A stretch of DNA of 46,478 bases from Myxococcaceae bacterium (GTDB lineage Bacteria; Myxococcota; UBA727; JABDBI01), in the NCBI GenBank assembly GCA_037134495.1, contig JBAXMC010000002.1, forward strand, positions 1 through 46,478. Direction: 5' to 3'. Below are positions 4,665 through 25,283 of the stretch, piece after piece. The notes under the pieces are model-generated. The model ran no database searches and had not been told where the DNA came from. It worked only from the letters and a program-made list of their open reading frames with translations. Made by a program: the position numbers and the translations under genes. The number at the start of each line of letters is the position of its first letter. Position 1 is the first letter of the stretch.

Positions 4665-5455
4665 AAGTAGTGGGGTATACCCTGGGCTCTGGCATTGGGC
4701 CAGAGTTGTTTAAAATTGCTTTTGCAAAAGCACGTATTCCAAAAAATATTAAATTTGTTTTGTGTGAAAGCTTATCTCAGGCAATTCAATTAGCTGAAGC
4801 TGGCGATATACAAGCTTTAGTAACAGGACCTGTTCATAAAAGTATTTTACAAAATATCAACGGCAAATCTTATCCAGGTCAGACAGAGTTATTGCATAAC
4901 TATTTAGGCATAGATTCAAAGCCGCCACTCATGATTTTTGTGGGTGGACCCTTTGTTTTAGGTTTGGCAACAGTGCATGTGCCGATAAAATTAGTTTCTC
5001 AAGCTTTGACACGTGAAAATTTGTCTCAAAAATTAGAGCGCTTGATTACGGGTACGGCCCAATTACTCAAAAAGCCAGAACATGAAGTTCGTGTCATAGT
5101 CTTAGGCTTAAATCCTCATGCTGGCGAAAATGGCTTATTGGGCGATGAAGAAAAATTGGTGATTGAGCCTGTGATTCGCGATTATAAAAACAGAGGCTTT
5201 CAAATCACAGGCCCTGTCCCTGCGGATGGCTTCTGGGGATATCTGCCTGGCAATATAGACGCTGTGATGGCCATGATGCATGACCAGGGCCTGGGGCCCT
5301 ATAAGCTGCTCACCCAGGGCAGGGCGGCCAATATGACTTTAGGGCTCAAAATACCAAGAACCAGCCCCGCACATGGCACAGCCGATAGTTTGGTTGGGAC
5401 TGGAAAAGCAAGTCCGGAGTCGCTTATTCAAGCGATTGAATGGGCTTGTGCTTAA
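4661..5455 (+). CDS. pdxA: 4-hydroxythreonine-4-phosphate dehydrogenase PdxA (compact form)
   Basis: Motifs GIGPE, ITGPVHK, GLNPHAGENG, MHDQGLGP and TSPAHGTA are collinear with E. coli PdxA. ATGA stop/start overlap with the Omp85 gene. Confidence 0.85.
   Translation: MKVVGYTLGSGIGPELFKIAFAKARIPKNIKFVLCESLSQAIQLAEAGDIQALVTGPVHKSILQNINGKSYPGQTELLHNYLGIDSKPPLMIFVGGPFVLGLATVHVPIKLVSQALTRENLSQKLERLITGTAQLLKKPEHEVRVIVLGLNPHAGENGLLGDEEKLVIEPVIRDYKNRGFQITGPVPADGFWGYLPGNIDAVMAMMHDQGLGPYKLLTQGRAANMTLGLKIPRTSPAHGTADSLVGTGKASPESLIQAIEWACA
5429..5449. repeat. Direct repeat copy 1 (inside the pdxA 3' end) flanking the ATPase cassette
   Basis: caagcgattgaatgGgcttgt recurs at 6640..6660 as caagcgattgaatgAgcttgt (20/21 identical, read by eye). 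Confidence 0.8.
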
Positions 5456-6594
5456 ATCATCCCTTCTTTGATGCAGAAATCCCAGAATGGGAGCACTCTG
5501 CCTGTATTTTCATGTCCAAAATCATTGCCGCCCATGTGTACTTGATAGAACTTGGGGATTTCAGTTCGTTCTCTAAAATATGAAATGTGCGGAGAGAGAC
5601 TTTTGTCTGAGACTTTGCATTCAATGGCCATAATGGGTTTTTTGTTTTTCAAAACGACAAAATCAATTTCTCGTTTGTCGGTATCTCTGAGATATCTAAG
5701 TTCGTATTTTTCACCAAGCGTATCTGTTTGAAAATGACAGTATTTGAGTAGATGCAATGCCACCATATTTTCGAAACGAGCCCCTGGATCAGAGATCTGA
5801 GTCCAATCCCATAAGTAGAGCTTCTGTTCTTTTTTGACAGCTCGAATACGTGGCGCTCCATAGGGAGGGATTCGAAAACTAACATATAGGTTATCAAACA
5901 GTGTTATCCAGCGCTGTACCGTCGCTGGGCTGACACTCAAGTCTTCCGCTAGATTCTTAATAGAAAGTGGTGAGCCTACTCTTTCTGGCAAAGCATCCAT
6001 GAGGAGATCGAGTAAACTGAGTTCTTTGACATACTGGAGACTGATTAAATCTTCGTGGATAATTCGATGATTGCGCTCATTTTGCCACCGCTTTAAAGTT
6101 TTTGATTCTCCGGAAAAAAGAGGTTCAGGAAAGCCGCCCCAGGCTAGTAAATGCTCTGTGTCACTTTGGGTTGGATTCGAATTAAGTTCACATAATGAGA
6201 AAGGGTGTAATCGATAATAATGATAACGTCCAAGCAGAGAGTCTCCGCCTTTATTGAAATAATCGAGTCTGGCTGAACCCGTGACCAAGAAACGATTGGT
6301 TGAATGGTGTTCATCGTAAAGGCCTTTAATAAAATTTCTCCAACGAGCATATTTGTGGATTTCATCTAATATGATTAACGAGCTCGATAGTGGAATCTCG
6401 ACTCTTAAAATCATCTTTTGATGGTTTAATATGTCCCAGTTTAAATAAGCAGGGTTCTTTTCGTTGCTTGGGTCTAATAGGCTTAATGCCAATGTGGTCT
6501 TTCCTACTTGCCTAGGACCTCCAACAAAAACCATTTTATTCTTTAGATCCTGCTCTATTGGGATTTTCAAATATCTGAATTTTTTAACCATCAT
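5452..6594 (-). CDS. AAA+ ATPase with DUF4143-type C-terminal domain
   Basis: Walker A GGPRQVGKTT and Walker B IILDEIH. C-terminal segment (REIDFVVL...MAIECKVSD) is typical of the AAA_14/DUF4143 family. Its stop overlaps the pdxA stop (convergent TTAA). Confidence 0.85.
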   Translation of the reverse strand: MMVKKFRYLKIPIEQDLKNKMVFVGGPRQVGKTTLALSLLDPSNEKNPAYLNWDILNHQKMILRVEIPLSSSLIILDEIHKYARWRNFIKGLYDEHHSTNRFLVTGSARLDYFNKGGDSLLGRYHYYRLHPFSLCELNSNPTQSDTEHLLAWGGFPEPLFSGESKTLKRWQNERNHRIIHEDLISLQYVKELSLLDLLMDALPERVGSPLSIKNLAEDLSVSPATVQRWITLFDNLYVSFRIPPYGAPRIRAVKKEQKLYLWDWTQISDPGARFENMVALHLLKYCHFQTDTLGEKYELRYLRDTDKREIDFVVLKNKKPIMAIECKVSDKSLSPHISYFRERTEIPKFYQVHMGGNDFGHENTGRVLPFWDFCIKEGMI

Positions 6595-6639: not shown

Positions 6640-6660
6640 CAAGCGATTGAATGAGCTTGT
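6640..6660. repeat. Direct repeat copy 2 flanking the ATPase cassette
   Basis: 20/21 match to 5429..5449. The single G->A change turns the pdxA-frame TGG into TGA. Confidence 0.8.
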
Positions 6661-6830: not shown

Positions 6831-8879
6831 ATGAATCGAGTTTATTTATATGTGAAGTTATTTATTGTTTGCCTTGTTGTTCAATGCTTGTTGAGCTGTG
6901 AAAAACATGACAAAAAAAACGATAGCAACAATCATGAACAGCGTGAGCAAGGTGAAGAGAAAGAAAAATTCATAGAAAACAAAAAATTGGTCAGGATATT
7001 TTCCACAAATTCTCCAGGCCAAAAGCAAGATGTAAGAATTTACAGCGAAGTTTTTGTGCCTGAGTTTGAAGTCGAAGCGATTGAGGTCAAGGGGGACAAG
7101 GATGACGGAAAAACACTTCTGAGCAATGAACAAACTGCCCTTGTTAATATATTTATTGAACATGTGTACGATCTAAACGCAAACAAAAAAGCAAAATTTA
7201 ATTGGTTGATGATTAATCAAGAATTCGTAGATTCCCCTGACCGACTTGAGAATATCGATTTGGTTCTCTGTAAGACTCAATTGGCTGCTGATTTGATGTT
7301 GAAATACGCCGAAAAATATCATTTAAAATTTCGCGTATACTATTCAAAATTTACAAGTTTTATAGATGCCAGTGTTATTTTAGGGAAAGATTTTGATTTA
7401 GCACTTCATAGTGCTGGAAAATCACCCTTTAAAAATACAGGTTCCGTTCTTCATGCCTGGATGAAAAACCCAGGTTTTCCAAAATTGATCGTAACCTGTA
7501 GAGATTATATGCCGGGCGATCATAATGGGTGTTTGTCTCAGAATGCAAAACCTGTCTTATACGATTATCAAATTCCGATTGTTGACGGAGAAGCTCATAT
7601 GGCTTCTAATCTCGAGCTGTTTACGGGTTTTGTTTCGCAGAGTAAACTTGAAAATTGGCAGAATCAAGCGGGCTATTATATTGTTCCAAGCTCTGTCGAA
7701 GGCTATGGACACTATATCAATGAGGGACGTGCAAAAGGTGCAGTGGTTATCACGACCGATGCTCCGCCGATGAATGAGATGGTTGAAGATGGTGTAACCG
7801 GTTTCTTGGTTCCTGTAAAAGATTCTTGGTTAATGAACACCTACTCTGGAGCTCTTGCTTATGGTATTGATCCGAGTGAACTTGCAAAAGTGATAGATAA
7901 AGTCGTGGCGTTGCCAGAAGATCAAAAATTGAAAATAGGCGAAAATGGTAGGAAATCTTTTTTAGCCGATAGAGTTTATTTTCAGAATCACATGCGAACT
8001 TTGGTGAGTAGTTTGGCTGAGCATGGAGATTTGTCTGGTGTTCCAGAAAATACTTACGCGACAGTGGATCGCGAAACGGCTAAACGTGTTTTAAAGAAAG
8101 CCTGTCTTGGAGTTATGTCGCAGCATCAAAATACAGGTGTTTCGGGTACTGGGATTTCAAAAACTTATGTGATTAATCTTGATCGGAGTAAAGATCGTCT
8201 TGCAGCAATGTGTCACGAATTTAGTCAAGCAGATATGAAATTTACTCGTTTTAGAGCGATTGATGGTAAAGAAAAAGGATTCTACGCAGATACACTTGAA
8301 AATAAAAAAATCTATCAACCACTTGAACTGGTTAGTAAAAAGCAAATGACTCCAGGTGAGTTCGGAATCTATTATAGTCACTATGATATTTGGAAGAATA
8401 TGATTGAAGAGGACCATCATGTTGGAATGGTGTTTGAAGATGATGCTCGGTTTAATAAAGACTTGCGAGCCAATTTGAAAACGATTATGTCAAATGCTCC
8501 CACTGATTGGGACATGATTTTCTTAGGTTGCAGAGTGGGCGACCCCCACGGAGCTGATTCTCATAAGCTAATCCACGAAGGTTCTTTTGATTTGTTGGTT
8601 GATGGAAAAAGCAAACCATCAACATTTTTACGTGTCGATGGACAGACGACTACGGGTTTGTACGGATATCTGTTGACGCAATCGATGGCGCAGCATATCG
8701 TCAATCACGCGATGCCTATACAAGGTCCTATTGATTTAATGTTGCAAATATTTTTTATTGGAAATCCACAAAGTACAAGCATGTTCGGTCCTAGAAAAGC
8801 CTATTGTGTGTTTCCTGAACCAGTTTGGTACGATAAAAAAGAACCCTCAACAATTACAGAATATGGTCGAAAGGGCTAG
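6831..8879 (+). CDS. Exported/lipobox-bearing bifunctional glycosyltransferase (GT-B Glycos_transf_1-like domain + GT25 domain)
   Basis: ATG at 6831 gives MNRVYLYVKLFIVCLVVQCLLS|C (lipobox). The ORF-track TTG start at 6789 is less likely. The central segment SSVEGYGHYINEGRAKGAVVITTDAPPMNEMVEDGVTGFLV is the GT-B E-x7-E region. The C-terminal segment TYVINLDRSKDRL...RFRAIDG...VFEDDA is GT25-like. Confidence 0.7.
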   Translation: MNRVYLYVKLFIVCLVVQCLLSCEKHDKKNDSNNHEQREQGEEKEKFIENKKLVRIFSTNSPGQKQDVRIYSEVFVPEFEVEAIEVKGDKDDGKTLLSNEQTALVNIFIEHVYDLNANKKAKFNWLMINQEFVDSPDRLENIDLVLCKTQLAADLMLKYAEKYHLKFRVYYSKFTSFIDASVILGKDFDLALHSAGKSPFKNTGSVLHAWMKNPGFPKLIVTCRDYMPGDHNGCLSQNAKPVLYDYQIPIVDGEAHMASNLELFTGFVSQSKLENWQNQAGYYIVPSSVEGYGHYINEGRAKGAVVITTDAPPMNEMVEDGVTGFLVPVKDSWLMNTYSGALAYGIDPSELAKVIDKVVALPEDQKLKIGENGRKSFLADRVYFQNHMRTLVSSLAEHGDLSGVPENTYATVDRETAKRVLKKACLGVMSQHQNTGVSGTGISKTYVINLDRSKDRLAAMCHEFSQADMKFTRFRAIDGKEKGFYADTLENKKIYQPLELVSKKQMTPGEFGIYYSHYDIWKNMIEEDHHVGMVFEDDARFNKDLRANLKTIMSNAPTDWDMIFLGCRVGDPHGADSHKLIHEGSFDLLVDGKSKPSTFLRVDGQTTTGLYGYLLTQSMAQHIVNHAMPIQGPIDLMLQIFFIGNPQSTSMFGPRKAYCVFPEPVWYDKKEPSTITEYGRKG

Positions 8880-8884
8880 CTAGT

Positions 8885-10000
8885 ATGCAGTATGTTTTAG
8901 GGGCTCTGCTTTTCTGCTTGGCCGCTCAAGCGAGCCTAGACACCTTCTGTCGTTCTTTGTACAAAAACCCAAAAGATCTTCCGTCTGTGTCCATTCCAAG
9001 TGCATTTGCAGGTAATTTGCAAAAAAAATCTCAATTCAGCGCTGAACTTCATCATGGTAATGCAGTTGAAGCGATAAGAAATTGGGCGGATTCCATTAAC
9101 TTACGCATTGGAAAAATACATGTTGAGAAAATGAAACCAGGGAAATCACTTAATACGTTAGGTGTTTTTAAAGTTTCTGGAGAATTGTCGAATGCTCGCT
9201 ATCTAGTGAAGCTAGTCAATAATGAACGAGAACCAAACGAGTTACTCAAACAGAAAAGTCTTTTATTGTTTCATCCAGAATGCGTCTCTAATCTTATGGC
9301 CGCAAGTATGCCGCATTTTGTGGTGCCCATTTTAGTGGAAAAAATTTTGAGTAAGGAACAAGATATTTATGTGATGTTGTTTCCTTTTGTTAATATCTCT
9401 GATTTTGAATCTATTTTTCGGCAGGCTATGTCTGGAAAGCTTGATAAGAATATTTCAAAAAAAGCATTCTTCGATGCTGGAAAATCCTTGTCTGCGTTTG
9501 GATTTTCGTTTTCTGATGAGGGCAATATGTATGTCCATAAAGATTTTCATCATAAAAATTTGATTTATGACGCTTCGACTGGAGTATCTTACTTCGTAGA
9601 TAATTCAGACATTAGTTTCCAGTCGAAATCTTTAATGGATTTTCAAAGTTTCTTTGATTGGGATATTAATGAGAGAAATGCTTTAGTGTCCATGATTGAT
9701 TGGGGTAATGTCTTGAGTTGGGTGAGACATCCCTCTGTAGAGGATTTTAGAGAATTATCTGAGTACAAGAGAATAAAACTTCTGAGTGATTTTTTCATGG
9801 AATTTTCCAGAGGGTATTTGTTGAATACTCCTGAAAATCTAAAAAATTGGGTCAAAGAGTCTCTTGCAAAACTTTGTCTATCTTATCAAAACCGTGTTGA
9901 AAAACATGCCACGGCAGATGGTAAAGTCACCCTTGATGATATTTTTCAGATAAAAATATCTGACAATTGGAAGCGCTGCATAAAGCGTGATTTTAATTAA
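8885..10000 (+). CDS. Secreted protein with protein-kinase/aminoglycoside-phosphotransferase-like fold
   Basis: Signal peptide MQYVLGALLFCLAAQA|S. Lys-strand YLVKLV. Catalytic-loop-like HKDFHHKNL (nt 9536..9559, H-x-D-x4-N) followed by YFVDNSD (DFG-equivalent). Confidence 0.5.
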   Translation: MQYVLGALLFCLAAQASLDTFCRSLYKNPKDLPSVSIPSAFAGNLQKKSQFSAELHHGNAVEAIRNWADSINLRIGKIHVEKMKPGKSLNTLGVFKVSGELSNARYLVKLVNNEREPNELLKQKSLLLFHPECVSNLMAASMPHFVVPILVEKILSKEQDIYVMLFPFVNISDFESIFRQAMSGKLDKNISKKAFFDAGKSLSAFGFSFSDEGNMYVHKDFHHKNLIYDASTGVSYFVDNSDISFQSKSLMDFQSFFDWDINERNALVSMIDWGNVLSWVRHPSVEDFRELSEYKRIKLLSDFFMEFSRGYLLNTPENLKNWVKESLAKLCLSYQNRVEKHATADGKVTLDDIFQIKISDNWKRCIKRDFN

Positions 10001-11164: not shown

Positions 11165-13060
11165 TTAATTCAAAGGTCTTGCGTTATGGAGAGATGGGTT
11201 CACAATATGATTGTCGTTGTACCGACATAGATCTTGAACTGTTTGCTCGATCACTTCTAGGTGAGTACTGCCAAATGGATTCCATGAGAAAGGAGTGTTG
11301 GCATGGATTCTTCTCAAAAGCTCGGCAGCTTCAATTTCATTTGAAGCAGAGTCGATATTTTCTTCGAAACCTAGACACTCACTATCTGTGCCGCAAATTT
11401 CAAAGACGAACTTTAGAGCCTTTTTTGAGTTTCCAAAACTGATCGCACGGAGTAGTTCGTTAGCCAAGAAAGCATTGTATTTTTCAATCTGAGTTTCTGA
11501 AATCCTAATATCTCTCTCGGTTTTTTTAACCTGTCTTGTTGACCAATGAATAGACAATTCTTTTACGGCTTGATGAGGAGTTTTTTCTCTGATCATCTTG
11601 AGAAATCTATTGGCTTCATCCCGATCTGAGGCGTATTTCAAAGTTTCCTCTAATTGAGGGCATTTATGATATTCAGAGCATATCTGAGTTACAAACTTCA
11701 AGGCTTCTTTTGTGTTCCCATGTTTGATCGCATTGAGCATGTTATCAACATTAGGAGAATGATATGATGGGACTTGAGTTTCTAAAGGTTCCTGTCTGTC
11801 GGTTTCTTCTGTCTTTGCTGCTCTGTATTCACTTGCTAGCTGCTCAATTTCTTTTTTAATAAGGATGGCTTTGGGAACAGAGTTAAAGAATTCTTTTACC
11901 TGATTCCATGTGTTTTGTTGAAGTCTGTTTAAAAGTTCATTCGCTATTTTTTTGTATTCTTTACCTCGAAGATTGATAGCATCTTTAAATGCTTCGCAAT
12001 GAGTGTCGTTTCCACAAATTCGAGCGAAGAAATGCAAAGCTTTTTTGGCATTTCCATGTTCAATTGAGGCCAGCATTTTGTTGACAGTTGTTACTTGAGC
12101 TTCACGAATTTTTTCGATGGCATATGTCAGTTTTTCGCTGGAACTTTCAGCGTTTTCTTTCGAAACAAAGCCTAGTATGAGTGTTGGTTGTGGTTCAACA
12201 GATTTTAAAATGTCGATGGGATCTCGTTGCTCACGTTGAGCTGCTTTTAAAAAATTATCGAGACAGTCTCTCGTGTTTTCATAGGATGAGACGCGTTCAC
12301 ATAGTTTTTCAGCCAATCCTTCTGCTACCATTGGTTGGTGCTCAACTTCTAACCCAGGGATTGCGTTACTTGCTTCAAGAAGATCTTTCCCTGAGTTTAT
12401 CTCATTGAGTAGAGCAGTATTGAATGTTTTTAAATCTGGATCTTTGGGATCGGGGAGAATTCTCAAAATAGCTTCTACTTCAAGATTTTTCCAAGCTGTT
12501 TTTTGTTTGGCTTCCTTAATATGCACAAGAAAGTCGCTCCAAATTGGTTTCTTGCCCTGCATTATTTCTTCAAGCTTTTGATCTCTGATCTTTTCGAGCT
12601 TTTGTCCCTCTGTGCTGCTTAGATATTTAGCAACAACACAATCTTTTTTTACAGTTTCGAAGGCCAACTTGGGAGCCATGCCAGCTTCCAATTCAGAGGC
12701 CATTTTTTGAGTAGCTGTCAGATAAAGACTGTTTTTGGGCCAACTTAATAATGCTTTGGTGATTTTTTCTAAATCTTGAATAGATTTGATGGCACTTTCC
12801 AAAGAAATCCAAGAACATTTCTTAAACGCAGCATCAAAAGATTCAGAGTCTCCATGGTTTGGTAACTTAAGAGGAGCGGGAGTCTTTATTTCGGGCTCTA
12901 CATCAGGCGTTAGCTCTGGTTCAGTTTGAGGCGTAACAGGTTCTGATGTAACTGGAGGCCTAACTGTTTCTTTTTTCTTGTTAAGAGGCATAAGAGGCTT
13001 GTCTGAACAGCTCATCATGCACGAAAAAATCAAACTAGTTGCGATAAATTTTTTAATCAT
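11165..13060 (-). CDS. Lipoprotein with Pro/Glu-rich linker and three ~65-aa helical Cys-pair repeats spaced ~90-110 aa apart
   Basis: Lipobox SCMMS|C. The repeats share the pattern (I/L)xxGNxKxAL(K/H)F(V/F)xxICxxxxxC...(E)xxxLLxR(I/L). They lie at about nt 11885-12085, 11555-11749 and 11270-11478. Confidence 0.75.
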   Translation of the reverse strand: MIKKFIATSLIFSCMMSCSDKPLMPLNKKKETVRPPVTSEPVTPQTEPELTPDVEPEIKTPAPLKLPNHGDSESFDAAFKKCSWISLESAIKSIQDLEKITKALLSWPKNSLYLTATQKMASELEAGMAPKLAFETVKKDCVVAKYLSSTEGQKLEKIRDQKLEEIMQGKKPIWSDFLVHIKEAKQKTAWKNLEVEAILRILPDPKDPDLKTFNTALLNEINSGKDLLEASNAIPGLEVEHQPMVAEGLAEKLCERVSSYENTRDCLDNFLKAAQREQRDPIDILKSVEPQPTLILGFVSKENAESSSEKLTYAIEKIREAQVTTVNKMLASIEHGNAKKALHFFARICGNDTHCEAFKDAINLRGKEYKKIANELLNRLQQNTWNQVKEFFNSVPKAILIKKEIEQLASEYRAAKTEETDRQEPLETQVPSYHSPNVDNMLNAIKHGNTKEALKFVTQICSEYHKCPQLEETLKYASDRDEANRFLKMIREKTPHQAVKELSIHWSTRQVKKTERDIRISETQIEKYNAFLANELLRAISFGNSKKALKFVFEICGTDSECLGFEENIDSASNEIEAAELLRRIHANTPFSWNPFGSTHLEVIEQTVQDLCRYNDNHIVNPSLHNARPLN

Positions 13061-16819: not shown

Positions 16820-17922
16820 CCAAGACCTCTTCCGCGTTTGGCCAAAGGACTTCCCACATACGTATGCTTGATTTTTCCAACGCTATAAATGCGTCGCTCA
16901 GCAAGCGTTTTGGATGCCATTAGGGTTGTGATTTTTTCTTCTTTAGCGATATTTAAAACTTGAGTCACAATGTCGTAAATGCCACTGGCTTGACGCATTG
17001 CTTGTCTTCTTTCGTATCTGATAAGCTCATTGGCAACGTTGATAAGACCTCCCGCACTAATCACAAAGTCTGGGATGTACAAAATATTTCGTCGTTCTAA
17101 CTCTGCACTGTGTTTATCTTCATCACCCAGGACATTATTGGCGCTGCCGGCTATGAGTTGGCATTTGAGTCGAGGAATCGTGTCGTCATTGACGATTCCG
17201 CCTAAAGCACAAGGGATAAAAATAGTGCAGGGGACATCGTAGATTTTATCGGGCGCTACAAACTCGATGCTTGGAAATTCTGTAGTGGTACGTTTGATGT
17301 TTTCAGCATTGACATCACTGGCAATAACTTTCGCACCAGCTGGGATTAAATGCTGCAGCAAGTGATAGCCAACTTGACCGACGCCTTGTAGAGCGACGGT
17401 CATATTTGCGAGAGAATCAGAGCCTGTTTTAAATAAAAGCGCTGCTTTAATGCCTTGAAAGACTCCATAAGCCGTAACCGTGCTGGGATCTCCAGAACCT
17501 CCAAAAGCTCTGTTAATACCGGTGACATATTCTGTCTCCATCCAAACCCAAGCCATATCTTGTACGGTTGTGCCGACGTCTTCTGCTGTGATATATCGAC
17601 CCCCTAGAGTTTGAACGAATCGACCAAAAACCCGAAGAAGTTTTTCGGTTTTCATGGTTTTAGGATCGCCAATGATCACGGCTTTTCCGCCACCTAAGTT
17701 AAGTCCTGCAGCTGCAGACTTGTAGGTCATGCCTCTGGAGAGTCTTAAGGCGTCTTTGAGGGCGTCTTGCTCGCTTGCATAGGGCCACATGCGACAACCG
17801 CCTAGAGCGGGGCCTAGAGTGGTGTTATGAATGGCGATAATGGCTTTAAGGCCGCTTTCTTTGTCATTGCAAAAAACAACTTGTTCGTGATCTTGTTTGC
17901 TTAGTTCATCGAAAATACTCAT
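16816..17922 (-). CDS. ldh: Leucine dehydrogenase (Glu/Leu/Phe/Val dehydrogenase family)
   Basis: EQVVFCNDKESGLKAIIAIHNTTLGPALGGCRMWPY and GLNLGGGKAVI closely match Bacillus LeuDH as I recall it. Rossmann motif GVGQVG. Confidence 0.8.
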   Translation of the reverse strand: MSIFDELSKQDHEQVVFCNDKESGLKAIIAIHNTTLGPALGGCRMWPYASEQDALKDALRLSRGMTYKSAAAGLNLGGGKAVIIGDPKTMKTEKLLRVFGRFVQTLGGRYITAEDVGTTVQDMAWVWMETEYVTGINRAFGGSGDPSTVTAYGVFQGIKAALLFKTGSDSLANMTVALQGVGQVGYHLLQHLIPAGAKVIASDVNAENIKRTTTEFPSIEFVAPDKIYDVPCTIFIPCALGGIVNDDTIPRLKCQLIAGSANNVLGDEDKHSAELERRNILYIPDFVISAGGLINVANELIRYERRQAMRQASGIYDIVTQVLNIAKEEKITTLMASKTLAERRIYSVGKIKHTYVGSPLAKRGRGLG

Positions 17923-18716
17923 TCTACAAAAACCTCACCTTCAAAAACGTAACGGGCAGGGCCCTTCATCTGGATCTGTAAACCATGCGTGGTTGGACGA
18001 GCGGTGATATAAAGGTTTCCGCCCTTTAAGTGAACCGTTATTTCTTCATTTTCAGGTAATTGGTTTTGTGAAACGAGTATGGCAACCGAGGCACAAGCAC
18101 CTGTTCCGCAGGCCTCAGTCTCACCCACACCGCGTTCAAAGACCCTGATATTAATTTCATGTAGATTTTTAATCTGAACAAATTCTGTGTTGACACTGGG
18201 GTCTATTAACTCTGTTTGAACATCGCCTTCAAAAACCAAATGAGGATTTCCCATAGAGACACGATTTCCGGTGATTTGTGCGATGCCCATGTCTATAGAC
18301 CATTGTCCTGATTCGTAGGTACAAGTTTTGGGGCCTGCATCTGTTTGAATGACTGTTACAGAGTGACCCTGGTCATGAAGCCACTGGGCGACGCATCTGA
18401 TGCCGTTGCCGCACATTTCAGCAATACTGCCGTTTGCGTTGAATATGCGCATATGGACCTCACCCGTCACGCTGAGCGTGCCACCCTCTCCACCAAGTGG
18501 AGAGGGTAAATCTGATTTAATTCCCCTCTCCACTTGGTGGAGAGGGGTTAGGGGTGAGGTTTCCGAAAAAAACACAAAGATTAATCCATCTGCTCCAATG
18601 CCCAGGTGTCGATCGCAGAGATTTTTTACTTGCTGAGGTGTTAAACAGGGATTTTTAGAAATAAGAATAAAATCGTTGCCGAGGCCTTCGTATTTGTAAA
18701 ACGATGTTTTTGCCAT
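17919..18716 (-). CDS. dapF: Diaminopimelate epimerase carrying an in-frame 34-codon repeat-element insertion
   Basis: YEGLGNDFI, catalytic MCGNGIRC and ACGTGA motifs. There is an extra ~29-34 aa between GADGLIFV and HMRIFNANGS compared with E. coli DapF. Confidence 0.85.
   Translation of the reverse strand: MAKTSFYKYEGLGNDFILISKNPCLTPQQVKNLCDRHLGIGADGLIFVFFSETSPLTPLHQVERGIKSDLPSPLGGEGGTLSVTGEVHMRIFNANGSIAEMCGNGIRCVAQWLHDQGHSVTVIQTDAGPKTCTYESGQWSIDMGIAQITGNRVSMGNPHLVFEGDVQTELIDPSVNTEFVQIKNLHEINIRVFERGVGETEACGTGACASVAILVSQNQLPENEEITVHLKGGNLYITARPTTHGLQIQMKGPARYVFEGEVFVE
18458..18559 (-). repeat. Double-hairpin palindromic element (REP/MITE-like), 102 bp, in frame within dapF
   Basis: TIRs cctcaccc...ggggtgagg. 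Two perfect hairpins: ccctctccac-caa-gtggagaggg and cccctctccac-ttg-gtggagagggg. The first ~35 nt of its reverse complement are near-identical to 41949 onward. Confidence 0.85.
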
Positions 18717-19320: not shown

Positions 19321-19962
19321 ATGGTGGCTAACCAACTGATTGAGCAATATGGGTCTTTTGTTCGTTCGATTGCACGGCAGGTGAAAAAGTCTGTTTCTCC
19401 TCGAATCGAACTAGATGACTTGATCGCTTATGGCATGACAGGCTTGTTAGAAGCCGCTGAACGGTTTGATGAGAAGCAAGGGGCTAACTTTACGACTTTT
19501 AGCTATTATCGTGTTCGAGGGGCTATCTACGATGGTCTTCGGGGTATGGGTTGGGTCTCGCGCAATGAATACCAAAAAATTAGATTTGGCGAACAGGCAA
19601 ATGCTTATTTAGAAAACGCATCTGGAGCAAAGTCTGAAGATCTCGAAGATTTAGCTTCACAAGTCAATAGTTTGGTGACGATTTTTGTGACTTCTCTTGA
19701 AGGCCTGGAAAAGCAAGATTTTGAAGATACTAAGCTTCAGGCACAAGATGACAGGCTGTTAGAACTTGAACTCAAAAATACGCTTAAAAAAGCGCTTCTG
19801 AGATTACCTAAGGCTGATTTAGAGCTGATTACGCTTTATTATTTTAAAAACATGAGCTTGGAAGAAGTGGGCCAAAAAATCGGCCTTTCTAAATCCTGGA
19901 CCTGCCGTAAGCATGCTCAAGTGATAGAAAAGCTTGGGGCTTTGATGCGTGGGGCTTGCTAA
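19321..19962 (+). CDS. Sigma-70 family RNA polymerase sigma factor (FliA/sigma-28-like size and layout)
   Basis: Region 2: DLIAYGMTGLLEAAERFDEKQGANFTTFSYYRVRGAI. Region 4 HTH: YYFKNMSLEEVGQKIGLSKSWTCRKH. Confidence 0.75.
   Translation: MVANQLIEQYGSFVRSIARQVKKSVSPRIELDDLIAYGMTGLLEAAERFDEKQGANFTTFSYYRVRGAIYDGLRGMGWVSRNEYQKIRFGEQANAYLENASGAKSEDLEDLASQVNSLVTIFVTSLEGLEKQDFEDTKLQAQDDRLLELELKNTLKKALLRLPKADLELITLYYFKNMSLEEVGQKIGLSKSWTCRKHAQVIEKLGALMRGAC
19882..19957. repeat. 76-bp direct repeat copy 1 (3' end of the sigma gene)
   Basis: ggcctttctaaatcctggacc...gatgcgtggggctt is identical base-for-base to 20747..20822 (compared by eye). Confidence 0.9.
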
Positions 19963-20116
19963 AAATTATAAACCTTAGATCCCAGATCATTGTTTTGCTC
20001 GTGGTCGTTATCGAGTTCTCTGAGAATTTCTAGAAGTGATATCCATGTCTGCTTGAATTCTAGACCACCTATTTGAGCGCTTGTGCAACAATGTTCCCTT
20101 GTTTTTCTAAACTCAT
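19959..20116 (-). pseudogene. Probable AbiEii-type toxin gene remnant (truncated and out of frame)
   Basis: An ATG at 20114..20116 overlaps the AbiEi stop (ATGA coupling typical of abiEi-abiEii) but reads only MSLEKQGNIVAQALK*. A second frame (the 72-aa ORF) runs to the repeat boundary at 19959. There is no full-length partner gene. Confidence 0.35.
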
Positions 20117-20688
20117 GAGAATAGCTCCACATAAGGTAAAATTCGATAACCAATGTTAAGTTCAAGAGCCATTTCATAGATAGCTCCTATTGAAGTAAGA
20201 TTCTCATTGATAGCTCTCCGTAGGCTGTCAACGGCTACTTGACTTCCAATGATTTGTGGATGTGTGAATGCATCAGCGATTGTGCGTGGGATGTTCGTTA
20301 TCCAAAATCCTTGGCGCTTATCGATGCCAGCATTCCATTTTGGCGATCGTATCCTGACCAAATGCAAGCCTTGATGACGCGAAAGTTTTGAGTGAGGCAC
20401 CATGATCCAGGTTTTCTTTGGGATTTCATCTGTCAGATTGTAATATGATAAAGCGGATAACAGACAAATTGCAGAAGGTTCTCCAACCCAGAATGTTGCT
20501 ACTTTAAACCATTCTTCTTCTGAGATATCGCCAGCAGAAGCTCGAAAAACGCCTCGCCCCAGTCGTTCAAGGATTCCTTGAGTTAGCATTTGTTCAATTT
20601 GGTAACGAGAGACTCCATTTTCTTTAGCGTCAGAGGCTGAAAAGAGCCCTGTTCGCAACGATTCTGGTAACACATTCATATTACGCAT
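20113..20688 (-). CDS. AbiEi-family (type IV TA) antitoxin/transcriptional regulator
   Basis: N-terminal wHTH LFSASDAKENGVSRYQIEQMLTQGILERLGRGVFRA plus a C-terminal AbiEi_3-like region. Size ~190 aa. Confidence 0.7.
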   Translation of the reverse strand: MRNMNVLPESLRTGLFSASDAKENGVSRYQIEQMLTQGILERLGRGVFRASAGDISEEEWFKVATFWVGEPSAICLLSALSYYNLTDEIPKKTWIMVPHSKLSRHQGLHLVRIRSPKWNAGIDKRQGFWITNIPRTIADAFTHPQIIGSQVAVDSLRRAINENLTSIGAIYEMALELNIGYRILPYVELFS

Positions 20689-20689
20689 T

Positions 20690-20735
20690 TACATAAAGTA
20701 ACACAAAAATGAAATATGTGGTACTTTTTTACGTA
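20690..20735. promoter_or_regulatory. Imperfect inverted repeat upstream of abiEi (candidate autoregulatory operator)
   Basis: tacataaagtaacac ...13 nt... gtggtacttttttacgta. The arms are roughly complementary, with mismatches and a 3-nt indel. Confidence 0.25.
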
Positions 20736-20746
20736 GTCTGTTTTCT

Positions 20747-20822
20747 GGCCTTTCTAAATCCTGGACCTGCCGTAAGCATGCTCAAGTGATAGAAAAGCTT
20801 GGGGCTTTGATGCGTGGGGCTT
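20747..20822. repeat. 76-bp direct repeat copy 2 (orphan copy of the sigma gene 3' end)
   Basis: Identical to 19882..19957. It is followed by cgtga (would read ...GAS*), whereas the gene copy is followed by gctaa (...GAC*). Confidence 0.9.
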
Positions 20823-21225
20823 CGTGAAAATCAACTAAATTAGACGTTTTGGCCATTCCGGGCTTGCGCTTATGGGTCGAATGAGGCCAAGATCGGCCAA
20901 GGAGTTTTCTAATGGCACAGTTGCCGGTTGAAATACAGCTTACATCTGAAATGTGTAGGCACCAATCGATAATGTCCCCTTTGTTCCCGCATATTTTAGT
21001 CTGCGTACGCTAAAGCTTCGGCAGACAGGTCGCCGCCGTTAGCGGCTTCCCTGTTTTGAGCCTGTAAGGGCAGAGCTACTTGGTATACTCAGCGCTGATA
21101 ATGATTTTAGATCCAGATTTCAAAATTTACGCAAAGCTTTTTTCTTTTTTATTCCCCTAACCTGCTTATTTTTAAAGACTTTTAAAATTAAAAATTCTTT
21201 TTTCAACAAATCGTCTGGCACCTGT

Positions 21226-21234
21226 TGGTAGAAT
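21226..21234 (+). promoter_or_regulatory. Candidate extended -10 promoter (TGgTAGAAT) for the pilin gene
   Basis: TGGTAGAAT lies ~55 nt upstream of the ATG at 21290. GGAG Shine-Dalgarno 8 nt before the ATG. No good -35 element. Confidence 0.3.
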
Positions 21235-21289
21235 ATCAATAGGACGAAATCTGAATTCCTCAGATCTTACGTCCACAGAGGAGATTTCA

Positions 21290-21826
21290 ATGAGAAAAAT
21301 TAATTTGGTTATTCTTGGTCTTTCGATGATGGCTTCTAGCGTTTCTTTGGCTACAACTGACCTTAGTGCGGGCGAGAGTCTTAATTCGACTGGTCCCACT
21401 ACAGGAGCTTTTACTGTGACTGCTTCAAAGGTTTCCCCATGTACTATTACTGCGAGTAATTTTACTATTACAAACTCACATACTGCTCTAGATACGTATA
21501 CTGGTACTCAAGCGGTATCTGTTGATTGTACTGGTGGTGCTTCAACTCTTTCATCATTGTATGTTCGTGATGCCGACGGTAGTACAGGTAGTCTTGGCTT
21601 CGTACTGAGTAATACGACCAACAGAGCTACCGGTGCTGTTACATTAACTCCATCCGTGAGTTTGGGCGGATGTACTGCAAGCAGCGCTTTCACTGATGAA
21701 TCAACAAGTTTGTTTTCAGACTCGTCAGTAACCGGATGTACTTTGAATGTTGGTTGGAGTGTTGTTTCTACGAGCATGATAGATGCAGAGGCAGCTCAAT
21801 ATAAATTGTACGCTACATTTAACTAA
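21290..21826 (+). CDS. Secreted Thr/Ser-rich pilin, Csu/spore-coat-U (SCPU)-like major subunit
   Basis: Signal peptide ...SVSLA|T. Two Cys pairs (CTITAS...VDCTGG; GGCTAS...TGCTL). Located beside chaperone, usher and SCPU genes. Confidence 0.5.
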   Translation: MRKINLVILGLSMMASSVSLATTDLSAGESLNSTGPTTGAFTVTASKVSPCTITASNFTITNSHTALDTYTGTQAVSVDCTGGASTLSSLYVRDADGSTGSLGFVLSNTTNRATGAVTLTPSVSLGGCTASSAFTDESTSLFSDSSVTGCTLNVGWSVVSTSMIDAEAAQYKLYATFN

Positions 21827-21833
21827 CGATTAG

Positions 21834-22841
21834 CTACTGAATCTTGCTTTGGGCTCCTAGTGAGCCCAATTCTGTTTCTGCCATAATTAACACAGAGTTG
21901 CCTTTTTTAAATCCTGCTTGAATAGGTTTTGAAATCCACAACTGCCCATTATTGACGAGATTTGAATTGTTTGTATCTCGGTCACAAGAGATGGCTTTCC
22001 CTTGTGCATCTTCCAAACTTAGAGCTCTAATAGAAAATTGTTTGCCATCTTTAAAAGTAATTTTTACAGACAAACGGTCACCGACTGGTTGTACCGACCA
22101 AAATACTTCATAGGGTGAAGATTGTATCTTTAAGCTTACTTGAGAAATATCTTGAGTTGCAGGGTCTTCGTAACTGATTTTTATCGTGTCACCAACATTG
22201 AAACCCGCTTTAATTGGTTTTGAACCCCAGAATTCAGAACTCTGAGGAAGAATGCTTGAGTTTTTAGGAGGAATTAAGTCGATCGTTTGTGCTTTTTTGT
22301 TTTGTTCTATCGCTTCTATGGAAAGATCTTTAACTTTAAAGTGCCTGTTTCCTGAATTGGTTCCCTTAATCGAGAGAGAATTCCCCAGTCTTTCAGCTGC
22401 AAACTCCATTTTTGGATTGCTATCTTTGCTCATGAAGTATGCTGGAATAGAAAATGACATTGTCATCTGAGCCTGAGCGCCTTTTTTCTGTAAAAAAATT
22501 GTGGGCTGAGGAAGTTCATTCGTAATAATCCTGTAGCTTTCCTCTCCATTAATCGGAGTTGTTGCAACTCGAACTAGTCGAATTATCTGAGACCCTTTGG
22601 CAGGTACTTTGACAATAGGAGGAGTCGAAATGACATCTCGAGTAGGGGTTAGTATTTCTTGACCATCTTTTTGAGTCCATTTAAAGATTTGCACCTGCAG
22701 ATCTATCGAATTTAGTTTTTCTGAACTTAAAGTAAGTCGAGCTACCTTTTCTGGTGCGTAAACACTGATGTTGGTCGGGGACACGCTTAATGAGAAAGCG
22801 TTTGAAGCAACGAATAAGATAGATAGGACGATCTTCATCAT
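21834..22841 (-). CDS. PapD-like periplasmic pilus chaperone with tandemly duplicated C-terminal domain
   Basis: N-domain LSVSPTNISVYAPEKVARLTLSSEK...IFKW...PPIVKVPAKGSQIIRLV. Residues ~146-240 and ~247-335 are clear paralogous repeats (G(N/D)xLS(I/V)K...F(K/S)(V/I)(K/R)xLS(I/L)E...SKPI(K/Q)AGF..G...KIQ). Confidence 0.75.
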   Translation of the reverse strand: MMKIVLSILFVASNAFSLSVSPTNISVYAPEKVARLTLSSEKLNSIDLQVQIFKWTQKDGQEILTPTRDVISTPPIVKVPAKGSQIIRLVRVATTPINGEESYRIITNELPQPTIFLQKKGAQAQMTMSFSIPAYFMSKDSNPKMEFAAERLGNSLSIKGTNSGNRHFKVKDLSIEAIEQNKKAQTIDLIPPKNSSILPQSSEFWGSKPIKAGFNVGDTIKISYEDPATQDISQVSLKIQSSPYEVFWSVQPVGDRLSVKITFKDGKQFSIRALSLEDAQGKAISCDRDTNNSNLVNNGQLWISKPIQAGFKKGNSVLIMAETELGSLGAQSKIQ

Positions 22842-22925
22842 AGTTCCAAACTTTGCCTCAAACTCGACGTGAATGTCCAGAAAAAAAATTAGAAATATTT
22901 TGCTCGTGCGGTTGTTGAAGTATGT

Positions 22926-25283
22926 ATGTGTTTTGTTTTCAGACTCATACTGACAATTTTTCTAGGGTCGACGATGCTGTTTGGTCAAGTTGAACCAACT
23001 GCAGCTCCGCTTTACCTTGAAGTCGATTTAAATTCAGAAGAGACAGGGAAAGTCATACCGTTTATTATAGAACCCAAATCTTCGCCTATGGCCATGCGAA
23101 AAGATTTATTAGAGGCGGGTCTTGTTTTACCAACAAAAGGATCGCCGGATGAGTGGATCGACTTGGACTCTTTGCCTGGAGTTGATTACGAATACGATGC
23201 GACTCAGCAAAATATCAATATTATTGTCCCTGATAACTATCGTCACGTTAAAGTTTTTTCTAATAAATTAGGAGGACCCGTTGAAACAGATCCCTCTCTT
23301 ACAGGTGTCTATATTGACTATGTTTTAGGAGGAGGGACAGTGCTGGATGTTTCGAAAGGTGCATTTTCAGGGAATTCAGCTTCACTCAACCTTGATGCAA
23401 ATTTATTCTCGCCGTTTGGAACATTGACTCAAGGTGTGGCTATTTCTAATACCAATTTTGATAACACATCTTTAGCTCGACTCAATACGACTTGGATGTA
23501 TTCAACTTCAGAACATCAACTGACAGCGTCAGCGGGTGATTTTGTGAGTGGAAGCCTTAATTGGACACAGAGTATTCGTCTAGGCGGGTTACAACTTAGG
23601 CGAAATTTTGCCACGAGACCAAGTCAAGTCTTAATGTCATTGCCATCTTTGGCTGGCAGTGCCGCTGTGCCCTCTGTGGCTGAATTATTCGTGAATAATA
23701 AGCTCTATAATACACAGCCTGTTGGAAGCGGGCCTTTCATTCTTAATAATTTGCCGATGTTATCAGGTCCATCAGAAGTTAAGATGTTGGTGAAAGATGC
23801 CAATGGCAATATTCAAGAAATCAGCGGTAGTTTTTTCCCAAACTCTCAAATCCTTAAAAAAGGTTTGGTTGATTTTTCGCTTGATGCTGGTTTTGCACGT
23901 CGAAATTTTGGTGGCTTTTCTTTTGACTATGACCCCAGAATCGTTGGTAGTGGAAATTTGCGTTATGGTCTTATTGAACACTTGACGCTCGAAAGCCATA
24001 TTGAAGGCGGAGCAGGTTTGATCAATGGAGGACTTGCTTCTACGACGAATATTGTGCCCTACAACATATTGGGGTTGTCATTTAGTAATAGTTATTATGA
24101 ACAGCTGTATGGTCTTCAGGTGACGGGCAACTGGAGATTTTTGATGCACGGTTGGGGTCTCTACGCTTCTAGCAGTAGACGATTTTTTGATTACAGAAAC
24201 TTAGGTTTTGCGACGGCTCTTGCTTCTGTAACTCAGTCGAGCTTGCTGAACAGCTTGAATGGTTTAGCCCAGGACCAAGTGGGGCTGAGTTTTCCGAGTT
24301 TCAAAAATTTGAATGTTTCATTACAAGCTTTGCATACGATCTCATCGAATCAGCAAGAAATTTGGACAGTTTCGAGCAATCTAAACTATAAGATTTGGCG
24401 CTCAATTCAGCTAAGGGGCAATGCCTATATGCAGTTTGGCGATACGCGTCAGCTTGGCGTGTATCTGAGTCTCAATATTCCGCTGGGTCAGGCTTATAGT
24501 GGCAGCGTTGGGGGAGGTCTTTCTTCTCAGCAATTATCAGGTCAAGCACAACTGACGAAAGGCAATGGAGGAAATACAGGCGATCTCGGATGGCAGCTTT
24601 ATCACAATGAAAGCAGTGCTAATCGTTTAACTGGAGCTTGGGGTGTTTATAACTCACCCATTGGAATTCTGCAGGGAAGAACAGGCTTAACGTATCCAGC
24701 TCTTAATACGAATTTAAATCTGAATGGTTCTGTCGTGCTTGTTTCAGAAGGGTTGTTTATGGCTCCACCTGTTCGAAACAGCTTTGCTGTTGTAAAAACG
24801 GGAGGCAAAGGAATTATGGTCTCACGAAATGGTCGTTTGGTTGGCACTACCGGAAAGTCTGGGAAGTTGCTGGTTCCAGGGTTGATGCCTTTTAGACACA
24901 ATCAAATTACACTTAATCTAGACAATTTGCCGTTGATGGCAGAAATGCCTGAGACAGAAGCGGATGCTACTCCTAAAGATAAAACGGGTGTGCTGGTTAG
25001 TATGGGACAACTAAAAATGGTTGCCGGAGCGATTGTGATTCTGACGGACCCTTCTGGGAAGTTCTTACCCGTTGGTAACTCTGTGACGATTGGACAAAAT
25101 ACTGCTGAGTTGTTTACGGTAGGTGAAGGTGGGCAAGCTTACTTAACCGGTCTTGAAGAGCATAATCGAATTAGTTCATTTTTTGGAAAGACAGCTTGTA
25201 AGGCTGAGTTTGATTTCAAACCTGATCCTAATACTCAACAAGTTGTAGGGCCGATTGTTTGTAAGCCCGTGGAGCCTTTATGA
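22926..25283 (+). CDS. Fimbrial outer-membrane usher (Csu/sigma-type)
   Basis: 785 aa. N-terminal LYLEVDLNSEETGKVIPFI plug/NTD signature, a long beta-barrel region, and an ATGA-coupled downstream SCPU gene. The start codon is uncertain. Confidence 0.8.
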   Translation: MCFVFRLILTIFLGSTMLFGQVEPTAAPLYLEVDLNSEETGKVIPFIIEPKSSPMAMRKDLLEAGLVLPTKGSPDEWIDLDSLPGVDYEYDATQQNINIIVPDNYRHVKVFSNKLGGPVETDPSLTGVYIDYVLGGGTVLDVSKGAFSGNSASLNLDANLFSPFGTLTQGVAISNTNFDNTSLARLNTTWMYSTSEHQLTASAGDFVSGSLNWTQSIRLGGLQLRRNFATRPSQVLMSLPSLAGSAAVPSVAELFVNNKLYNTQPVGSGPFILNNLPMLSGPSEVKMLVKDANGNIQEISGSFFPNSQILKKGLVDFSLDAGFARRNFGGFSFDYDPRIVGSGNLRYGLIEHLTLESHIEGGAGLINGGLASTTNIVPYNILGLSFSNSYYEQLYGLQVTGNWRFLMHGWGLYASSSRRFFDYRNLGFATALASVTQSSLLNSLNGLAQDQVGLSFPSFKNLNVSLQALHTISSNQQEIWTVSSNLNYKIWRSIQLRGNAYMQFGDTRQLGVYLSLNIPLGQAYSGSVGGGLSSQQLSGQAQLTKGNGGNTGDLGWQLYHNESSANRLTGAWGVYNSPIGILQGRTGLTYPALNTNLNLNGSVVLVSEGLFMAPPVRNSFAVVKTGGKGIMVSRNGRLVGTTGKSGKLLVPGLMPFRHNQITLNLDNLPLMAEMPETEADATPKDKTGVLVSMGQLKMVAGAIVILTDPSGKFLPVGNSVTIGQNTAELFTVGEGGQAYLTGLEEHNRISSFFGKTACKAEFDFKPDPNTQQVVGPIVCKPVEPL

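Follow-up and report, generated by a model that had tools for sequence, protein, structure and literature searches.

The 46,478-nucleotide (nt) stretch of contig JBAXMC010000002.1 analyzed here (hereafter the window), from the Myxococcaceae bacterium assembly GCA_037134495.1, carries an intact gene for a sigma-70-family factor of the FliA/WhiG type whose 3′ end is present twice, once in the gene itself and once as an orphan copy 865 base pairs (bp) downstream. The two copies enclose a small islet of 789 bp that holds, on the minus strand, an intact abiEi antitoxin gene with a putative operator and the remnants of its partner toxin gene abiEii. The sigma gene (19321..19962, plus strand) encodes a protein of 213 amino acids with the Pfam domains Sigma70_r2 and Sigma70_r4, and its best NCBIfam match is FliA_WhiG (8.2e-41, a score below the family's curated cut-off). 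An exact look-up of this protein found nothing on record, and a similarity search led to three related genomes (L001, L002, and L003), metagenome-assembled genomes (MAGs) labelled Myxococcales or Deltaproteobacteria, whose sigma proteins are 78-92% identical to it at the amino acid level over the full length.

Two sigma-gene termini and the DNA between them

The left copy of the repeat (19882..19957, plus strand) consists of the last 25 full codons of the sigma gene and encodes GLSKSWTCRKHAQVIEKLGALMRGA, which belongs to sigma region 4. It is identical to the right copy (20747..20822, plus strand) at 76 of 76 bases in direct orientation (BLAST E = 2.8e-39), as an earlier note on this DNA had reported, and short palindromes resembling repetitive extragenic palindromic (REP) elements aside, the pair is the sole long direct repeat of the window. 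Past the repeat, both copies run on for exactly one codon and then reach a stop in register. The earlier note also held that this last codon and the stop differ between the copies, and they do: the terminus of the working gene (19958..19979, plus strand) has TGC (Cys), the stop TAA, and a tail ending in TTAGA, and that of the orphan (20823..20844, plus strand) has TCG (Ser), the stop TGA, and a similar tail with the same ending, reading TCG-TGA-AAATCAAC and onward. Beyond the stops, 13 of 20 bases agree up to the shared TTAGA (19979/20844), after which no similarity is seen. The single codon, the in-register stop, and the partly matching tail found in both copies identify these as two homologous gene ends, two versions of the sigma terminus that are neither a chance match nor a simple copy.

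The distribution of differences between the copies is uneven. None fall within the 76 bp, yet the 25 bases after them contain 11 (about 40% divergence). Against L001, the closest relative, the window shows about 13 differences in those 76 bp, as counted by eye on the alignment. The repeated stretch includes the most conserved sigma-gene nucleotides among the relatives. So abrupt a switch from identity to divergence at the last codon cannot be a product of coding constraint. Scans for tRNA genes, transfer-messenger RNA (tmRNA) genes, and Rfam families over the window and over 19800-21400 returned no matches, and an attachment (att) site lying in an RNA gene was rejected on these grounds. Promoter and terminator scans gave no excess over shuffled sequence.

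Within the islet, abiEi (20113..20688, minus strand) encodes a protein of 191 amino acids, predicted to serve as antitoxin and autoregulator, that matches Pfam AbiEi_4 (9.6e-8) and, over residues 12-189 of 191, the PADLOC AbiEi model (2.7e-34). Its length equals that of 40+ homologues, and it shares 79-84% amino acid identity with four metagenomic proteins (P0002-P0005, all of 191 amino acids). Measured against these relatives, the ratio of nonsynonymous to synonymous substitution rates (dN/dS) is 0.13-0.14, the same value as among the relatives themselves. The toxin gene has fared differently. What is left of abiEii (20004..20116, minus strand) is codons 1-15 (20116-20072) joined out of frame to codons 262-284 (20072-20004), an internal loss of about 740 bp that removed codons 16-261, as determined by blastn against the homologous locus L006, by alignment, and by tblastn with the 284-amino-acid AbiEii of L006. 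The 4-nt ATGA overlap of abiEi and abiEii and 13 nt past the abiEii stop have been kept. The earlier note was therefore right that the 789 bp carry abiEi and a toxin stub, but the toxin gene was not cut at the left repeat, as it supposed; the loss is internal. An open reading frame (ORF) of 72 amino acids that covers the toxin remnant (19959-20177) has no Pfam match.

The AbiE systems of Streptococcus agalactiae and Mycobacterium tuberculosis are autoregulated and possess an inverted repeat in front of the operon (PMC3985639, PMC7319586). The islet resembles these type IV toxin-antitoxin systems in its AbiEi, which has both the N-terminal AbiEi_4 winged helix and the C-terminal domain, in the ATGA overlap with the next gene, and in an inverted repeat of 8 nt, GTAACACA (20698-20705) and TGTGGTAC (20717-20724), that precedes the operon and whose position is conserved in all fetched homologous loci. 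By analogy with the published systems, this repeat is a plausible AbiEi operator. In contrast to them, the islet has lost its toxin: of the DUF1814 nucleotidyltransferase AbiEii expected downstream, only residues 1-15 and 262-284 of 284 are encoded. Rather than a working AbiE system, the module is an orphan antitoxin whose toxin was disarmed, deliberately or accidentally, and the islet today is predicted to supply a DNA-binding autoregulator and antitoxin with no toxin of its own. Such an orphan AbiEi may neutralize related AbiEii toxins.

The region upstream of abiEi is also shortened. Only 58 nt of it (20689..20746, minus strand) precede the joint with the orphan copy. In the homologous loci L004, L005, L006, and L021, homology extends to about position -80 and ends in a 17-nt box, AACACTTWACATAAGGT, that neither the window nor the more distant AbiE loci contain. 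The joint falls at an arbitrary point inside the module's usual upstream region, and it therefore represents a deletion or an illegitimate junction, not an att arm left intact. With codons 16-261 of abiEii gone and the upstream region cut at -58, the islet is as degraded as had been thought.

Assembly of the locus was checked on Logan contigs and unitigs (k=31). For run X1, the likely source sample, unitig ends coincide exactly with the repeat, which forms a 76-nt unitig at a depth of 23x; depth is 8-10x in the body of the sigma gene, in the islet, and in the DNA downstream (islet 10x, flanks 7.5-8.6x). In X2, a second sample, a contig of 155 nt spans 20686-20840 and crosses the joint of islet, orphan copy, and downstream DNA without a mismatch, which lends this joint independent support. 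Runs X3, X4, and X5 contain related strains at 2-4x only, and the joints are not covered in them. An excised form would make no new 31-mers, since the repeat exceeds the word length, and unitigs are blind to it.

The site in relatives and gene-end brackets elsewhere

Gene order upstream of the site (RNase G, leucine dehydrogenase, dapF, a hypothetical gene, and sigma) is kept in L001, L002, and L003. Downstream, the sigma gene of L001 (92% amino acid identity) and of L003 (78%) is directly followed by homologues of window 38730-39143, 39192-40421, and 40397-41575. Homology with L001 resumes 19 nt past the sigma stop, at window 38694, so that a promoter region and a gene for 137 amino acids (38694..39143, plus strand) stand directly behind sigma where synteny resumes. 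Because the sigma gene of both relatives adjoins the homologue of 38730, window 19963-38693 (18,731 nt) is lineage-specific. L002 has unrelated genes downstream of sigma. These comparisons support an insertion point, variable among relatives, at the 3′ end of the FliA-like gene for sigma.

The empty site in L001 and L003 covers the whole of 19963-38693 and not the islet alone. The comparison with relatives that the earlier note had proposed was thereby answered in part: the site is uninterrupted in both genomes, but they lack the entire 18.7 kilobases (kb), and sigma followed directly by 20823 onward was not found in any collection or run examined. A metagenome scan with the sigma protein retrieved the same organism on a 1-kb contig ending before the 3′ end of the gene, together with distant relatives only. 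A sensitive search of the window found no third copy of the sigma end, even a degenerate one, including near 38.6 kb, and the 18-kb block is therefore not bracketed; no flanking repeat was detected at its right edge. Base composition does not set the insert apart either, the guanine-plus-cytosine (GC) content being 0.408 in the block and 0.407 in the core.

The earlier note had seen no integrase, and domain scans of ORFs and tblastn with recombinase fragments associated with related modules (described below) found no recombinase or transposase in 19960-38693. The islet does not have the makeup of a transposon or insertion sequence, as its ends lack inverted repeats, the duplication measures 76 bp, and there is no transposase. 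Nor does it have that of an integron cassette, there being neither intI nor an attC-type site in the window. A palindrome near the associated recombinase gene in the loci L012 and L004 was examined by eye and lacks the integron core consensus RYYYAAC/GTTRRRY.

A second AbiE module is bracketed by copies of a gene end. Window 20072-20733 is about 84% identical at the nucleotide level to L004, L005, and L006, and in L004, a contig of 18.7 kb, the module is part of a 3.5-kb insert with a complete hisS on one side and, on the other, an orphan hisS 3′ end of 136 nt (7782-7917 and 11311-11446, 84% identical). This insert contains an aminoacyl-tRNA-synthetase OB-fold fragment, the 5′ fragment of a recombinase gene, abiEi, and a 3′-truncated abiEii, and its joint with the orphan lies inside abiEii, a point different from that of the joint in the window. 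Divergence between the two hisS ends is spread evenly and amounts to 15 synonymous and 4 non-synonymous codon differences (counted by eye). Since most of these differences are synonymous, the orphan comes from another functional allele, as at e14/icd, rather than from a duplicate decayed in place.

The AbiE module repeatedly lies next to a gene resembling that of a tyrosine recombinase. In L004, L021, and L006 it is preceded by the first ~19 codons of this recombinase-like ORF, and in L006 it is followed by the ORF (Phage_int_SAM_1, 9.7e-10). A search for homologues of the L006 recombinase fragment found one truncated relative, and in L012 and L013 a truncated recombinase-like ORF stands beside other toxin-antitoxin genes. 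The window may preserve a trace of the same DNA: within the 25 nt that separate the stop of sigma from the end of abiEii, a relic of 14 nt, GATCTGG-GATCTAA (19975..19988, minus strand), matches a motif that in the fetched loci occurs only in L012, L013, and L021, just upstream of the recombinase-like ORF. This motif is suggestive of recombinase-proximal DNA having once lain between the sigma stop and abiEii.

The box AACACTTWACATAAGGT occurs twice, 87 nt apart, in L012 (1691-1794), L013 (659-760), L021 (1-140), and L004 (9826-9938), one copy being part of a palindrome upstream of the recombinase-like ORF and the other lying within codons 12-17 of that ORF. In L004, L021, and L006 the AbiE module begins right after the second box, so that the recombinase gene itself was an insertion target there, and a deletion from one box to the other accounts for L005. 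The box was considered as an att site and rejected, given that it codes for part of the recombinase N-terminus (NTLHKV) and has a similar copy in the upstream palindrome. Manual comparison of the sigma site GGCCTTTCTAAATCC with the reverse complement of the box gave about 7 of 15 matching bases with a gap, and this was not relied on.

A smaller bracket of the same layout is found at pdxA (4661-5455), in agreement with the earlier note. The last pdxA codons recur as a direct repeat of 21 nt (5429-5449 and 6640-6660, 20/21 identical), and the sole gene in the 1.19 kb between the two copies is an AAA_14/DUF4143 gene (5452-6594, minus strand) of the PADLOC candidate defense family PDC-S01 (1.3e-46), whose stop overlaps that of pdxA. 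As at the sigma gene, the cargo is convergent with its target, its 3′ end at the working gene end and its promoter side at the orphan. A perfect palindrome with 10-bp arms, CATTTTACTC and GAGTAAAATG, lies between the start of the AAA_14/DUF4143 gene and the orphan 21-nt repeat. The pdxA ORF itself encodes 264 amino acids and overlaps the preceding ORF of 721 amino acids by 4 nt; its alignment with Pfam PdxA begins only at profile position 63, and the N-terminus may have been shortened or the start miscalled.

A bracket of another kind was seen in L007, which is from the same MAG as L002. Its AbiE operon is enclosed by an imperfect direct repeat of 37 nt (81%; 9950-9986 and 11489-11525) that consists of intergenic DNA, and it belongs to a cluster of toxin-antitoxin or defense-type genes with PIN, MNT/HEPN-like, AAA_14/DUF4143, and ParE members.

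Origin of the islet

All of the evidence agrees with two alternative versions of the sigma end and what follows it having been placed in tandem. Direct repeats built from the target gene's end flank the insert, and the sigma gene is of full length relative to its relatives, with an alternative terminus beyond it. As to how this came about, a decayed remnant of an integrative element, of the type of the cis-mobilizable elements (CIMEs) or of e14 at icd, is the reading favored here, with a probability of about one half. The hisS case, the association with a recombinase-like gene, the relic motif, and the pdxA bracket support it, and the 21-nt pdxA repeat has the size of an att core.

Known elements offer partial models. 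e14 sits between icd and an icdC fragment, and the termini are exchanged when it excises (PMC13626634, citing Hill et al. 1989). The proposed likeness to e14 and phage 21 in Escherichia coli lies in recombination within the 3′ end of a coding gene, in a homologous end carried by the incoming DNA, in the gene staying intact, and in a C-terminal fragment left at the far end as a pseudogene in direct orientation. However, e14 has its own integrase, about 15 kb of prophage genes, and SOS-induced excision, whereas the islet has no recombinase, measures 789 bp, and shows a perfect 76 bp followed by sharp divergence. CIMEs, such as those belonging to the ICESt1/ICESt3 family found at fda of streptococci, no longer possess genes for integration and transfer yet keep flanking attL and attR derived from the end of their target, and repeated integration there makes them accrete in tandem (PMC5704250). 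The islet, too, is without integration or transfer genes and flanked by repeats of the target gene end. CIME att sites are recognized by a cognate integrase, though, while the islet has one arm truncated and the neighboring 18 kb has no second att.

In the tycheposons of Prochlorococcus, successive integrations at the same site push older elements inward and leave partial target copies, fragmented integrases, and cargo-only remnants, often with defense genes (10.1101/2020.12.28.424599). The targets named there are tRNA and tmRNA genes and the tyrosine-recombinase family is a defined one; here the targets are protein-coding (sigma, pdxA, and the hisS of L004) and the link to a recombinase is indirect.

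If the islet does descend from an integrative element, that element would have been circular and would have entered by one reciprocal (Campbell-type) crossover in the last ~100 bp of the sigma gene. The incoming DNA would have brought its own copy of the gene end, which would have kept sigma whole and placed another end 865 bp farther on. A tyrosine recombinase, its gene deleted later, would have catalyzed the crossover, and we infer site-specific recombination at the sigma end. What remained of the element would then have been lost in a deletion spanning from the region upstream of abiEi to a point in the orphan copy, which fixed the repeat length at 76 bp, the internal deletion of abiEii being a further step of decay. 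The 18 kb to the right would have been present already, or would be an older element pushed inward. To leave today, the islet would need either RecA-dependent recombination of one 76-bp repeat with the other or a recombinase acting in trans, and it is most plausibly a scar, immobile or at most RecA-excisable.

A series of observations weighs against an integrative element. A recombinase gene or fragment was found nowhere in the window, and no genome or contig examined has the 18 kb without the islet. The left edge of the orphan copy abuts AbiE at an arbitrary internal point, so that at least one att arm is not preserved. Perfect identity over 76 bases followed by abrupt divergence of about 40% is unlike a diverged gene end borne by an element, for which the evenly spread 84% identity in L004 provides a comparison. 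An integrative origin needs a recombination breakpoint at the last codon and an extra assumption, either a near-identical source strain or gene conversion. The GC content of the islet equals that of the core. The association with the recombinase-like gene draws on short contigs, and the pattern of the relic motif was chosen post hoc, with a single match in the window, none in 100 shuffles, and a local alignment p of ~0.005-0.02.

The earlier note's view of the locus as the signature of an integration that supplies a replacement terminus and leaves att-like repeats accordingly holds in part. There are two terminus versions, an intact gene, and an insertion point, but the orphan joint is not a preserved att arm and the identity pattern misfits a simply diverged replacement end. 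The observation underlying that view was confirmed as correct, and the interpretation is partly supported.

The main rival, somewhat less probable, is that two haplotypes of the DNA downstream of sigma in close strains were joined in tandem by homology-facilitated illegitimate recombination, with no dedicated recombinase involved. Homology-facilitated illegitimate recombination is known from Acinetobacter, pneumococcus, and Pseudomonas stutzeri. The parts would be one haplotype in which the sigma gene ending GAC-TAA is followed by AbiE and another in which the sigma gene ending GAS-TGA is followed by the pilus and giant-ORF region described below. Incoming DNA would have been anchored in the conserved right flank, its left end, 76 bp inside sigma, would have been joined illegitimately 58 nt upstream of abiEi where recombination within sigma would have been expected, and the orphan copy would be donor flank. 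Such a history would yield 76 identical bp from a shared strain background and divergence from the last codon on at a haplotype boundary with no extra steps, and it would account for the arbitrary cut in the AbiE upstream region, the absent recombinase, the absent right-hand repeat, and the uniform composition. It also fits a site that is variable among relatives, L002 with its different downstream genes included. Joining of haplotypes explains the unbroken identity over 76 bp, the sudden divergence, and the arbitrarily placed joint more economically than an integrative element does. Yet it requires a rare illegitimate joint, and there is no convincing microhomology at 20746/20747; it leaves unexplained the relic of recombinase-upstream DNA beside the sigma stop and the recurring gene-end brackets around defense genes (pdxA, and hisS of L004 with its orphan of a diverged allele); and neither single haplotype has been observed.

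A broader proposal, doubtful as it stands, is that small defense cassettes (AbiE and the AAA_14/DUF4143 genes of the PDC-S01 type) may be mobile in this uncultured lineage although they carry no recombinase gene. Their insertion, in convergent orientation, would hit the final codons of sigma, pdxA, and hisS and duplicate 21-136 nt of the gene end. A tyrosine recombinase would act on them in trans, its gene being targeted at the 5′ end as well (L004, L006, and L021), and the whole would form a cassette system distinct from integrons.

Still less probable is a local duplication or long target-site duplication, produced when a fragment was captured at a staggered break by end-joining or template switching, with the differences between the termini coincidental or acquired later. 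The perfect identity of the 76 bp agrees with this, as do the makeup of the insert, a module fragment with arbitrary ends, and the 37-nt imperfect intergenic repeat around the AbiE of L007. Duplication predicts tails that are identical or unrelated, however, and not homologous termini 40% diverged beside 76 unchanged bases, and the differences of the L004 orphan, being mostly synonymous, mark it as an allele of foreign origin, not as a duplicate that decayed. An assembly artefact, in which the chromosome would run from sigma to 20823, with the 865-bp unit existing as a separate circle, as a tandem array, or as another strain's DNA threaded in via the 76 bp, is very improbable, for although the repeat is collapsed in the X1 k=31 unitig graph, where both passages through it use the same words, and its 23x slightly exceeds twice the flank depth, the islet unitig (10x) has the same depth as its flanks (7.5-8.6x), the X2 contig links the islet to the chromosome on the right so that its other side must follow the repeat, and a 76-bp repeat is shorter than ordinary reads.

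Neighboring accessory DNA and biological meaning

To the right of the orphan end, the lineage-specific DNA absent from L001 and L003 extends over 20845..38693. It begins with a chaperone-usher cluster of SCPU/PapD/usher pilus genes (21290-26230). The first gene past the orphan copy (21290-21826) encodes a secreted protein of 178 amino acids adjoining the SCPU/PapD/usher genes; a search of 5.8 billion proteins for its homologues returned only the protein itself, and no locus having the pilus region without the islet was retrieved. Next comes a gene with AAA-ATPase_like (PF09820) and PDDEXK_9 domains (26447-28003, minus strand), the second gene of an ATPase-nuclease type in addition to the one at pdxA. 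An ORF of 404 amino acids (28061-29275) has no family match at all. The block ends with an ORF of 3116 amino acids (29290-38640, minus strand), absent from both syntenic relatives, whose only Pfam match is DUF3638 at residues 2086-2291 and which has no PADLOC match.

Small dispersed sequences were noticed in and around the block. Other X1 contigs contain versions of the non-coding segment 21030-21071, to the right of the orphan copy, that differ from it by 3-5 mismatches; with a local depth of up to 47x, the segment is probably another small dispersed repeat. Upstream of sigma, dapF (17919-18716, minus strand) has an in-frame insertion of ~32 amino acids relative to L001 (18452-18568) that is made up of two REP-like palindromes (CCCTCTCCAC..GTGGAGAGGG). 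The X1 depth rises to ~230x over this element, further copies are found at 26265, 41962, and 42032, and peptides like the one inserted in dapF (PSPLAGEG...) occur inside ORFs of L002. The element resembles palindromic elements that insert in frame into genes.

Taken alone, the islet is a routine genome scar of a known kind that changes the understanding of no system and recurs in the lineage. It identifies the 3′ end of the FliA-like gene as a hot spot for insertion, where 18.7 kb of accessory DNA have gathered in one lineage of an uncultured freshwater bacterium. Its content illustrates the usual fate of a toxin-antitoxin defense module after arrival, in which the toxin is lost by deletion and purifying selection maintains the antitoxin and regulator. 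Gene-end brackets recur around defense genes, at sigma, at pdxA, and at hisS in L004, and this recurrence offers a lead to the recombinase and the attachment sites that seed such defense islets.

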